Notes under the pieces: model-generated
Database searches by the model: none
What the model saw: the letters and a program-made list of their open reading frames with translations, nothing else
Told to the model about the DNA's origin: nothing
Position numbers and translations under genes: made by a program
Source: Escherichia coli
GTDB taxonomy: Bacteria; Pseudomonadota; Gammaproteobacteria; Enterobacterales; Enterobacteriaceae
DNA: 3,273 nt
NCBI RefSeq assembly: GCF_003334255.1
Contig: NZ_QOWU01000123.1
Direction: 5' to 3' (one strand)
Part shown: piece by piece, positions 1-3,273 of the stretch
Numbering within the stretch: the first letter of the stretch is position 1
Layout of the letters: each line of letters begins with the position of its first letter

Positions 1-29
1 ATCGACGATTGCTGGAAAGGCTGGGCCAT
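1..29 (-). CDS. 5' end of an outward-reading ORF of unknown function (MAQPFQQSS..., runs off the left edge); mirror copy of the start at 3261
   Basis: Minus-strand ATG at 29..27 preceded by the reverse complement of GGAGGAG at 39..33; nine codons are visible before the window edge. It lies inside the left inverted-repeat arm, so it is sequence-identical to the right-arm start. Only a few codons are visible, so coding status is tentative. Confidence 0.3.
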
Positions 30-132
30 ACTCCTCCGGCAGAAGCAGAAAAAGCTTATTATGCTTCCATCGGAAACAATGATCTGGCAGCCTGAGTTCA
101 CAGATAAAACACTCTCCAGGAAACCCGGGGCG
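17..132. repeat. Left arm of long inverted repeat (at least 116 bp)
   Basis: Reverse complement of 3158..3273 equals 17..132 at 115 of 116 positions; the single mismatch is at 78 (A) versus 3212. Pairing stops at 133/3157. The outer end coincides with the window edge, so the repeat may be longer. Confidence 0.93.
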
Positions 133-458
133 GTTCAGATGGGCGTCTAAGTTACCAATTCTCGTCTGATGGCTACATACGGCGGTCAGTTTACGCTTAC
201 AAAACTACAGCCCTGGGTAGTTGCAGTTCAGGACGTTGGGATGATCAGGATGAATGGGGGGAGCAAGCACGGGGAATCAGAGATGCAATTAATGCTAAAC
301 TTGATGATCCGCACAAATGGAAAAGGAAAAAATGCAGGTTGCATATGGAATTCTCCCGGGATGGCACGGCTTTAAAAATATCAACCAGTGACGGCGATAA
401 AGCCTATTGCGAAGCGATAAAGTCAGCAGCCCATAAAGCTAAATTCCCGGCTTTCAAG
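108..458 (+). pseudogene. TolA C-terminal domain (domain III)-like ORF fragment; no in-frame start, 3' end interrupted or displaced by the IS256-family element
   Basis: The frame containing 108..575 is open after a TAA at 105..107 and has no ATG or GTG before 345. Positions 276..458 translate to IRDAINAKLDDPHKWKRKKCRLHMEFSRDGTALKISTSDGDKAYCEAIKSAAHKAKFPAFK. From memory, E. coli TolA ends ...IKSAIESKF...KTCTLRIKLAPDGMLLDIKPEGGDPALCQAALAAAKLAKIPKPP...; the two Cys (codons 333..335 and 408..410) are 25 residues apart in both, with DG and GD at the same offsets. The overlapping ORF from ATG 169 is in a different frame, and a G6 run at 256..261 separates the two frames. Confidence 0.5.
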
Positions 459-459
459 G

Positions 460-481
460 GAGTGTTAGAAATTCTGTGTCA
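460..481. repeat. Putative left terminal inverted repeat of the IS256-family element
   Basis: GAGTGTTAGAAATTCTGTGTCA matches the reverse complement of 3065..3086 (GAGCGCTCAGAATTCTGTGTCA) at 16 of 22 positions, including a perfect 12-bp core. It lies 33 bp upstream of the transposase ATG. Confidence 0.35.
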
Positions 482-514
482 TTCCAGTAATATACAACCA
501 AAAAGGAATGACAC

Positions 515-1046
515 ATGTCCCAACCCTTCGATTTCGATAAAGCGCTTAAGGCCCTCCAGTCCGGCCAAGCATTAACCGGCAAGGATGGTATCCTAACGCC
601 ATTAATCAAACAGTTAACAGAAACCGCTCTGGCCGCTGAACTCGACTCCCATCTGGCTCAGGATGTTGAAGTCAATCGTAAAAATGGTTCCGGAAAAAAG
701 ACCATTAAAGCCCCGACTGGCAGCTTTGAGCTGGCAACTCCACGTGATCGTAATGGTTATTTTGAACCCCAACTGGTGAAGAAGCACCAGACCACGCTGT
801 CTGATGAGCTCGAGCGCAAGATCATTCGCCTGTTCGCGCTGGGGATGAGCTACCAGGATATCAGCCGGGAGATCGAAGATTTATCCCCTTCAGTGTTTCC
901 ACGGCTACCATCAGTGCGGTTACCGATAAAGTCATTCCTGAGTTAAAACAGTGGCAGCAGCGCCCGCTGGAGAAGGTTTATCCCTTCGTCTGGCTGGACG
1001 CCATTCACTATAAAATCCGCGAAGATGGGGGTTATCAGAGCAAGGC
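515..1046 (+). pseudogene. IS256-family transposase, 5' portion; frameshifted near 884..888 and then interrupted by IS2
   Basis: ATG at 515 with AAGGA at 503..507. The translation MSQPFDFDKALKALQSGQALTGKDGILTPLIKQLTETALAAELDSHLAQ...TPRDRNGYFEPQLVKK... carries motifs I recognise from IS256-type (Mutator-like) transposases. The starting frame stops at 944..946, but the homologous sequence continues one frame over from about 883 (IPFSVSTATISAVTDKVIPELKQWQQRPLEKVYPFVWLDAIHYKIREDGGYQSKA), implying a 1-nt indel in the C run 885..888. The frame is then broken at 1047 by IS2. Confidence 0.85.
1042..1046. repeat. IS2 target-site duplication, left copy (AAGGC)
   Basis: AAGGC immediately precedes the IS2 terminus TAGACTGG at 1047 and is repeated at 2378..2382, directly after the other terminus. 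Confidence 0.9.
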
Positions 1047-1087
1047 TAGACTGGCCCCCTAAATCTCCAGACAACCAGTATCACTTA
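1047..1087. repeat. IS2 terminal inverted repeat (insC-proximal end)
   Basis: About 41 bp, imperfectly matching the reverse complement of 2336..2377. Shared blocks are CCCC, TCCAGACA and TATCACTTA. It contains the internal palindrome TATCACTT-ATTT-AAGTGATA at 1079..1098. Confidence 0.6.
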
Positions 1088-1137
1088 TTTAAGTGATAGT
1101 CTTAATACTAGTTTTTAGACTAGTCATTGGAGAACAG

Positions 1138-1503
1138 ATGATTGATGTCTTAGGGCCGGAGAAACGCAGACGGCGTACCACACAGGAAAAGATCGCAATT
1201 GTTCAGCAGAGCTTTGAACCGGGGATGACGGTCTCCCTCGTTGCCCGGCAACATGGTGTAGCAGCCAGCCAGTTATTTCTCTGGCGTAAGCAATACCAGG
1301 AAGGAAGTCTTACTGCTGTCGCCGCCGGAGAACAGGTTGTTCCTGCCTCTGAACTTGCTGCCGCAATGAAGCAGATTAAAGAACTCCAGCGCCTGCTCGG
1401 CAAGAAAACGATGGAAAATGAACTCCTCAAAGAAGCCGTTGAATATGGACGGGCAAAAAAGTGGATAGCGCACGCGCCCTTATTGCCCGGGGATGGGGAG
1501 TAA
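1138..1503 (+). CDS. insC: IS2 OrfA (InsC), 121 aa helix-turn-helix regulator and N-terminal part of the OrfAB transposase
   Basis: ATG at 1138 with GGAGA at 1128..1132. The translation [56 protein letters not shown]...LLPGDGE matches the IS2 InsC sequence as I remember it. The ORF-track start at 1093 is an upstream in-frame extension without an RBS. Confidence 0.95.
1455..1461 (+). other. IS2 programmed -1 ribosomal frameshift site (A AAA AAG) joining insC to insD
   Basis: AAAAAAG lies in the insC/insD overlap, and insD is in the -1 frame relative to insC. This is the known IS3-family recoding arrangement that produces the OrfAB transposase. Confidence 0.8.
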
Positions 1504-2366
1504 GCTTAGTCAGCCGTTGTCTCCGGGTGTCGCGTGCGCAGTTGCACGTCATTCTCAGACGAACCGATGACTGGATGGATGGCCGCCGCAGTCGTCACAC
1601 TGATGATACGGATGTGCTTCTCCGTATACACCATGTTATCGGAGAGCTGCCCACGTATGGTTATCGTTGGGTATGGGCGCTGCTTCGCAGACAGGCAGAA
1701 CTTGATGGTATGCCTGCGATCAATGCCAAACGTGTTTACCGGATCATGCGCCAGAATGCGCTGTTGCTTGAGCGAAAACCTGCTGTACCGCCATCGAAAC
1801 GGGCACATACAGGCAGAGTGGCCGTGAAAGAAAGCAATCAGCGATGGTGCTCTGACGGGTTCGAGTTCTGCTGTGATAACGGAGAGAGACTGCGTGTCAC
1901 GTTCGCGCTGGACTGCTGTGATCGTGAGGCACTGCACTGGGCGGTGACTACCGGCGGCTTCAACAGTGAAACAGTACAGGACGTCATGCTGGGAGCGGTG
2001 GAACGCCGCTTCGGCAACGATCTTCCGTCGTCTCCAGTGGAGTGGCTGACGGATAATGGTTCATGCTACCGGGCTAATGAAACACGCCAGTTCGCCCGGA
2101 TGTTGGGACTTGAACCGAAGAACACGGCGGTGCGGAGTCCGGAGAGTAACGGAATAGCAGAGAGCTTCGTGAAAACGATAAAGCGTGACTACATCAGTAT
2201 CATGCCCAAACCAGACGGGTTAACGGCAGCAAAGAACCTTGCAGAGGCGTTCGAGCATTATAACGAATGGCATCCGCATAGTGCGCTGGGTTATCGCTCG
2301 CCACGGGAATATCTGCGGCAGCGGGCTTGTAATGGGTTAAGTGATAACAGATGTCTGGAAATATAG
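1461..2366 (+). CDS. insD: IS2 OrfB (InsD), 301 aa DDE integrase-like catalytic domain
   Basis: Open frame from GTG at 1461 to TAG at 2364..2366. The translation ...[21 protein letters not shown]...[50 protein letters not shown]... matches IS2 InsD as I remember it, with the IS3-family DDE region. It overlaps insC in the -1 frame. Confidence 0.95.
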
Positions 2367-2377
2367 GGGCAAATCCA
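2336..2377. repeat. IS2 terminal inverted repeat (insD-distal end)
   Basis: Reverse complement TGGATTTGCCCCTATATTTCCAGACATCTGTTATCACTTAAC aligns imperfectly with 1047..1087. Confidence 0.6.
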
Positions 2378-2382
2378 AAGGC
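2378..2382. repeat. IS2 target-site duplication, right copy (AAGGC)
   Basis: Direct repeat of 1042..1046, immediately after the IS2 terminus at 2377. Confidence 0.9.
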
Positions 2383-3053
2383 AGTTTATACCGTACTGGC
2401 GCTGAATCTGGAAGGCAAAAAAGAAGTCCTGGGCCTGTATTTGTCGGAAAGCGAAGGCGCTAACTTCTGGCTGTCAGTATTAAGTGATCTGCAAAACCGT
2501 GGCGTTGAAGACATTCTGATTGCCTGCGTGGATGGGCTGACCGGCTTCCCTGAAGCGATAAACAGCATTTATCCGCAGACAGAGGTACAGTTGTGCGTCA
2601 TTCACCAGATACGTAACTCGATTAAATATGTGGCGTCAAAACACCATAAAGCGTTCATGGCCGACCTGAAGCCAGTGTATCGTGCGGTGTCAAAAGAAGC
2701 AGCGGAAACGGCGCTGGATGAGCTGGAAGCGAAATGGGGGCAGCAATATCCGGTGGTGCTCCAGTCCTGGCGCCGCAAGAGGGAAAATCTGTCAGCGTAC
2801 TTCCGCTATCCGGCGAATATCCGCAAGGTGATCTACACAACCAACGCGATAGAATCAGTCCACCGCCAGTTCAGGAAACTGACCAAAACCTAAAGGTGCT
2901 TTCCCAAATGAAAACAGCCTGTTGAAGCTACTTTATCTGGGACTGATGAACGCACAGGAGAAATGGACAATGCCCATCCAAAGCTGGAATTTGACATTGT
3001 CGCAGTTAGCCATTTATTTTGAAGGGCGGCTGAATAATGTGATGACGCTGTAG
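2378..3053 (+). pseudogene. IS256-family transposase, 3' portion; additional frameshift at about 2891
   Basis: Resumes exactly after IS2 (...YQSKA / VYTVLALNLEGKKEVLGLYLSESEGANFWLSVLSDLQNRGVEDILIACVDGLTGFPEAINSIYPQT...) and runs to TAA at 2891..2893. Homology then continues one frame over from 2892 (KGAFPNENSLLKLLYLGLMNAQEKWTMPIQSWNLTLSQLAIYFEGRLNNVMTL) to TAG at 3051..3053, implying a 1-nt insertion near 2891. The motifs DILIACVDGL...FP and KW.MPIQ.W are typical of IS256-family transposases. Confidence 0.85.
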
Positions 3054-3064
3054 AATTTTTAACG

Positions 3065-3086
3065 TGACACAGAATTCTGAGCGCTC
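3065..3086. repeat. Putative right terminal inverted repeat of the IS256-family element
   Basis: Inverted partner of 460..481; begins 12 bp after the transposase stop. It contains the 8-bp palindrome GAGCGCTC. Confidence 0.35.
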
Positions 3087-3107
3087 TCAAATTAAAATCA
3101 TCGATAT

Positions 3108-3137
3108 TTAACAAGTTTAAATTATTAAGATTATTTT
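3108..3137 (+). promoter_or_regulatory. Candidate sigma70-like promoter in the AT-rich spacer, reading rightward into the right repeat arm
   Basis: TTAACA at 3108..3113 (5 of 6 to TTGACA), then 17-18 bp to TTATTT/TATTTT at 3131..3137. The surrounding 3087..3157 is about 80 percent A+T. Such matches occur readily by chance in AT-rich DNA. Confidence 0.2.
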
Positions 3138-3157
3138 AATCAAGATTAAAAGTGAAT

Positions 3158-3273
3158 CGCCCCGGGTTTCCTGGAGAGTGTTTTATCTGTGAACTCAGGC
3201 TGCCAGATCATCGTTTCCGATGGAAGCATAATAAGCTTTTTCTGCTTCTGCCGGAGGAGTATGGCCCAGCCTT
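3158..3273. repeat. Right arm of long inverted repeat (at least 116 bp)
   Basis: Reverse complement is identical to 17..132 except at one position (3212 C versus 78 A). The arm runs to the last base of the window. Confidence 0.93.
3261..3273 (+). CDS. 5' end of an outward-reading ORF of unknown function (MAQP..., runs off the right edge); mirror copy of the start at 29
   Basis: GGAGGAG at 3253..3259, then ATG at 3261; the frame is open to the window edge. Same sequence as the left-arm copy because it lies in the inverted repeat. Confidence 0.3.

Follow-up and report, generated by a model that had tools for sequence, protein, structure and literature searches.

A decayed IS256-family insertion sequence, split by IS2 and probably inherited with ireA in Escherichia coli

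Insertion sequences of the IS256 family encode a Mutator-superfamily DDE transposase, with a C/DxxH motif in its helical insertion domain, in a single open reading frame (ORF) of ~400 amino acids, end in imperfect terminal inverted repeats of ~20-30 bp and duplicate 8-9 bp of target DNA. The structural reference used here is the transposase of ISCth4 (TnpA; PDB 6xg8), in which D175, D241 and E348 form the active site and C262/H265 a CxxH motif (PMC7780238). IS2, a member of the IS3 family, is 1331 bp long, duplicates 5 bp of target and encodes OrfA and OrfB, which overlap at an A6G slippery site. Nested or decayed insertion sequences are known from the virulence islands and plasmids of E. coli, where the NCBI Prokaryotic Genome Annotation Pipeline (PGAP) labels their transposase pseudogenes "frameshifted; incomplete". 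Here we describe a stretch of 3,273 nucleotides from E. coli (NCBI RefSeq assembly GCF_003334255.1, contig NZ_QOWU01000123.1), hereafter the window, which on reading of its sequence and ORFs is a stack of mobile elements. Most of it (positions 458-3088, plus strand) is taken up by an IS256-family insertion sequence, 1295 bp long when intact, that is split by a nested IS2. We conclude that 458-3088 is very probably a non-functional remnant of this 1295-bp element, derived from a single insertion beside the siderophore-receptor gene ireA and inherited with ireA ever since.

Alignment to full-length relatives divides the IS256-family element into a left part (458-1046, plus strand), which has one terminal repeat at 458-481 (GGGAGTGTTAGAAATTCTGTGTCA) and carries codons 1-177 of the transposase from the ATG at 515, and a right part (2383-3088, plus strand), which carries codons 178-400 and has the second terminal repeat at 3065-3088. 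The ends were set from copies in five different flanking contexts, and a count by eye gave 18 matches in 24 positions between 458-481 and the reverse complement of 3065-3088. For comparison with known transposases, a repaired ORF was made by removing IS2 and one copy of its AAGGC target duplication and mending two indels, with nothing else altered. The repaired ORF encodes 400 amino acids, of which 11 differ from the intact annotated transposase WP_097752252.1, and the homology is therefore well beyond chance. It scored 410 bits on NF033543 (IS256 family transposase, cutoff 150), and matched Pfam Transposase_mut (PF00872) over residues 10-373 (E = 5e-103) and the ISCth4 transposase structures (6xg8 and related entries; E = 6e-113). 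Residues D162, D228, E335 and C249/H252 of the repaired protein align with the catalytic residues D175, D241 and E348 and with C262/H265 of ISCth4, in a mapping corrected for the +3 offset of the PDB chain index. The element is thus like other IS256-family members in its single ORF of ~400 amino acids, its DDE and CxxH residues, its terminal repeats and its total length, and the 8-bp target duplication is present in undisturbed relatives of the window copy. PGAP names it "IS256 family transposase" only, with no ISfinder element name.

The closest intact allele is that of WP_097752252.1, which was found as one continuous ORF at another locus in two E. coli strains, GF130 and A37. Differences from this allele are unevenly spread: 59 codons differ over the first 540 nt, 50 of them synonymously, against 6 over the remaining 660 nt. 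This mosaic pattern suggests past recombination between variants of this IS256-family insertion sequence.

The window copy differs from the family in being, to all appearances, dead: it carries two frameshifts and a nested IS2, has lost a conserved Trp to a missense change and has had its left flank exchanged. The one continuous ORF typical of the family is broken at 885-886, at 1047 and at 2889-2891. Because intact relatives keep a single continuous ORF, the broken ORF of the window marks a pseudogene and not a member of some other family; PGAP likewise annotates the identical plasmid sequences described below as frameshifted, incomplete transposase pseudogenes. Frames were read by direct three-frame translation. 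The ORF from the ATG at 515, in frame 2, holds 123 native codons followed by 20 out-of-frame residues to a stop at 944-946, and homology moves to frame 1 from ~887 to 1046 (FSVSTATISAVTDKVIPELKQWQQRPLEKVYPFVWLDAIHYKIREDGGYQSKA). Past IS2, homology is back in frame 2 (2383-2890) until a TAA at 2891-2893; from there it carries on in frame 0 as far as a TAG at 3051-3053. An earlier note on this DNA, made from the letters alone, had claimed three separate disabling lesions in the transposase at these places, with homology carrying on in the new frame after each indel; translation and alignment bear out both statements. The note had also proposed alignment to the closest intact transposase, and alignment of the IS2-excised window with seven relatives, the GF130/A37 allele among them, placed the indels at 885-886 and 2889-2891.

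The first of these indels (lesion 1; 885-886, plus strand) is a replacement of ATG by CC at codons 124-125, a net loss of one base that throws the frame off before any catalytic residue is reached. All relatives read TTATATGCCTTC at this site, and the window reads TTAT-CCCCTTC. The second (lesion 2; 2889-2891, plus strand) is a +1 insertion, either the extra C of an ACC or T2891, that places the TAA of 2891-2893 directly after Thr347. It lies 12 residues past E335 and costs the transposase its last 53 residues, a segment that aligns with ISCth4 almost to the ISCth4 C-terminus. At 2889-2891 the sequence is AAAACCTAAAGG in the window and in all ireA-linked relatives. In the nearest intact allele (GF130, A37) the site reads AAAACTAAAGG (ACT AAA), and by that comparison the extra base is a C; against the more distant copy of STECUZB006, itself annotated with an internal stop, where the site reads AAAACCAAAGG, the extra base is a T. 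Either base is therefore a fair description of the insertion, although the comparison with GF130 and A37 most simply favours C. The position that the note gave for this break, about 2891, with the resulting TAA, was correct, and its "extra T" is one of two equivalent descriptions.

Damage beyond that listed in the note was also found. Codon 311 carries a missense change, W311R (TGG to AGG, 2780-2782, plus strand), at a Trp that is also conserved in the ISCth4 transposase. Two other codons have each been altered more than once: the intact allele has CGT at codon 173 (1030-1032), where other remnants have TGT and the window has GGT, and ACT at codon 82 (758-760), where strain 2009C-3133 has TCT and the window, like most remnants, has TAT.

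Frame changes such as these could be an artifact of sequencing or assembly at short homopolymers, with a reading frame that is truly continuous except for IS2, and the earlier note had treated sequencing error as a live alternative. Both sites do adjoin short runs today (CCCC at 885-888 and AAAA/CC at 2885-2890). However, the description of both indels as lying in or near homopolymers fails at 885: since ATG was replaced by CC, the C run at 885-888 is a product of the mutation and not an earlier homopolymer. A change of three bases into two different bases is also not something that a run-length miscall can yield. Independent assemblies carry the same bases. The core of the window (138-3147) is base-identical in the three plasmids compared, CP060058 (strain G8, human, Germany), CP116070 (human, China) and CP055726 (pooled pig faeces, UK), and BLAST gave a 100% match to a fourth, CP060062, from strain G6/7, which is a German sister isolate of G8. 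An 80-nt probe over lesion 1 matched exactly in these four plasmids only; ~295 other records match the probe at 96.3% identity and have ATG at this site. An exact k-mer check agrees with the placement of lesion 1 in the plasmid sequences.

Lesion 2 is far more widespread. A 78-nt probe over this site matched 303 complete E. coli genomes, 190 of them exactly. In the matches sampled at 98.7% identity, query and subject spans were equal, indicating a substitution with the extra base kept, and a one-base gap to the probe was seen in the A37-type intact allele only. About 300 of the 303 genomes that hold this stretch therefore carry lesion 2. Many laboratories and hosts are represented (humans, poultry, cattle, pigs, dogs and a beluga whale), and the type strain DSM 30083 is among these genomes, as is strain S88. 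Given identical bases in independent assemblies, sequencing error is not tenable for either lesion, and we regard it as extremely improbable. The two frameshifts and the IS2 insertion are, as far as comparison among assemblies can tell, real mutations.

Real frame changes need not be disabling if they are programmed recoding sites from which a full-length or alternative transposase is still produced, and IS3-family elements, including the IS2 in the window, do use programmed -1 frameshifting. Intact relatives of the IS256-family element, however, encode one continuous 400-amino-acid ORF with no shift at the 885 or 2891 sites, and inspection of the sequence found a slippery heptamer at neither lesion. 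Lesion 1 is moreover limited to one plasmid lineage, and IS2 separates the catalytic residues regardless of any recoding. Programmed frameshifting was rejected on the grounds of the single ORF in intact relatives and the lack of slippery sites, and its probability is practically negligible.

The third break is the insertion of IS2 (1047-2377, plus strand; 1331 bp), with orfA at 1138-1503, an A6G slippery site at 1455-1461 and orfB at 1461-2366. It is flanked by the target duplication AAGGC at 1042-1046 (left copy) and 2378-2382 (right copy), which is single-copy in alignments of uninterrupted relatives; the note's placement of the insertion at 1047 agrees with this. IS2 falls after transposase codon 177 and so parts D162 from D228, the first two catalytic residues. 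Both of its proteins are full length and above the NCBIfam cutoffs, at 276 bits for TnpA (cutoff 229) and 724 bits for TnpB (cutoff 597), and the identical sequence is annotated by PGAP as an IS2 transposase with a programmed frameshift (WP_165836147.1). In length, 5-bp duplication and overlap of OrfA and OrfB at the slippery site the window copy is like any other IS2. It shows no notable difference and is an ordinary, apparently intact IS2 that landed inside another insertion sequence.

The distribution of the remnant in E. coli bears on when each lesion arose. Of the 607 places where the remnant was matched, 560 are chromosomal, and the median number of copies per genome with any match is one. 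Chromosomal remnants adjoin ireA in convergent orientation, and ireA itself is chromosomal in the genomes fetched, apart from three plasmid records. In strains 2009C-3133 and DSM 103246 an 8-bp duplication, AAATTAAA, flanks the remnant on both sides, which indicates one ancestral insertion. Every ireA-linked copy fetched carries lesion 2, and in 2009C-3133 it is the sole disabling lesion: removal of one C restores a 400-amino-acid ORF. This makes lesion 2 the oldest of the three, earlier than both IS2 and lesion 1. Of the two courses that the earlier note allowed, decay already under way at the IS2 hit and decay continuing around it, this supports the first. By the same comparison of copies, lesion 2 is older than the dispersal of the ireA module.

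Lesion 1 and IS2 occur together, and only in CP060058, CP060062, CP116070, CP055726 and the window. Neither lesion 1 without IS2 nor IS2 without lesion 1 was found among complete E. coli genomes or in PLSDB, so that either may have come first. Both are evidently younger than lesion 2 and confined to a plasmid lineage. Other lineages carry damage of their own. Most chromosomal copies have an IS3-family insertion near element position 557-562, and a chromosomal subset (MDR_56, DSM 103246) has a 12-bp in-frame deletion corresponding to window positions ~2691-2702. After a shared first lesion, the lineages have decayed along independent paths. In three of the plasmids (CP060058, CP116070 and CP055726), of 56-100 kb, ireA lies amid dense elements of the IS66, IS110, IS3, IS21 and IS256 families, and CP055726 is typed as mobilizable, IncK2/Z, MOBP. 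In the literature on ireA together with IS256 or transposase, survey papers only were found, and nothing on this remnant.

We propose the following history. The element would have inserted beside ireA, creating the 8-bp duplication, and a one-base insertion after codon 346-347 would then have produced an immediate TAA, with loss of the last 53 residues and presumably immobilisation of the copy. The 3' truncation alone would abolish transposition, judging from the conservation of the lost segment and the fixation of the copy at one locus. The remnant would next have spread with ireA across many E. coli lineages. In one of these, now found on mobilizable plasmids (one typed IncK2/Z), the change of ATG to CC at codons 124-125 would have shifted the frame a second time, and in the same plasmid lineage, earlier or later than this change, an active IS2 would have inserted after codon 177.

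Three points weigh against this account of a single insertion, long dead and passed on with ireA. That a copy carrying lesion 2 only is inactive is something we infer. The mosaicism described above means that the "nearest intact relative" that polarises lesion 2 is a local one only. Finally, the window is without the left copy of AAATTAAA: in the window and the plasmids this sequence is present on the right side only (3089-3096), and the left flank is a TolA-like fragment. With the left copy missing and a truncated TolA-like gene in its place, the left flank has been exchanged by a later rearrangement, so that the history is less simple than a vertical series.

The linkage of the remnant to ireA in hundreds of genomes could also mean that it has been retained because it is useful, either through its N-terminal product or as a regulatory or structural neighbour of ireA. 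The N-terminal region is the DNA-binding part in the IS256 family, and the ORF at 515-946 retains its start codon and 123 native residues, most of that region. Its 143-amino-acid product, if still expressed, might act as a repressor, damping intact IS256-family relatives in trans. However, the 5' region is broken differently by lineage: chromosomal copies have an IS3-family insertion near 560, whereas plasmids have lesion 1 and IS2, which leaves the N-terminal product unconserved. Amino-acid replacements have piled up, one of them at the conserved Trp. The convergent orientation of ireA means that the remnant cannot supply its promoter, and plain physical linkage explains the co-occurrence of the two. 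Repression in trans by the N-terminal product is very unlikely, as is a role in ireA regulation or structure, and we retain the view of a non-functional remnant that has travelled with ireA.

The flanks of the element are themselves made up of fragments. Abutting its left end is a fragment of a gene with a TolA-C-terminal-domain-like product (177-455, plus strand), named from the PGAP annotation of identical plasmid sequence and belonging to the flank and not to the element. Its matches to TolA in NCBIfam are weak, both below cutoff. In other matches this gene, truncated here, adjoins phage lysis genes. At the window boundary lies the end of an IS3-family (IS629-like) element (1-137, minus strand), which is absent from this site in the four plasmids. 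A second IS3-family copy, with the same end in inverted orientation, is at 3153-3273 (plus strand) and is present in three of the four plasmids; the two ends, 1-137 and 3153-3273, have 2 mismatches over 121 positions. The plasmid without the right-hand copy is CP116070, whose agreement with the window ends at base 3147.

To the left of base 138, the window has the IS3-family end and all four plasmids have an IS66-family tnpA, which apart from the right side of CP116070 is the only difference noted between the window and the plasmids. The simplest reading is that one additional IS3-family insertion at 137/138 of a plasmid-type sequence accounts for the left junction of the window. This junction, in which the IS3-family end meets base 138, had no match among GTDB representative genomes or JGI metagenome contigs. 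A special explanation for IS3-family and IS66-family ends that both abut base 138 was considered and dropped, as a further IS3-family insertion suffices without coincidence.

The remnant is routine insertion-sequence decay, and the window shows no difference from other nested and decayed insertion sequences of E. coli virulence islands and plasmids. It is a textbook example of insertion sequences landing and decaying inside one another near virulence genes, and by itself of little importance. It also illustrates that seeming homopolymer frameshifts can be checked through independent assemblies without reads. For the biology of E. coli, the common 3' frameshift would serve as a stable marker of the shared descent of the ireA module over chromosomes and plasmids, and lesion 1 and IS2 together would mark a plasmid-borne ireA lineage found in humans (Germany, China) and pigs (UK).

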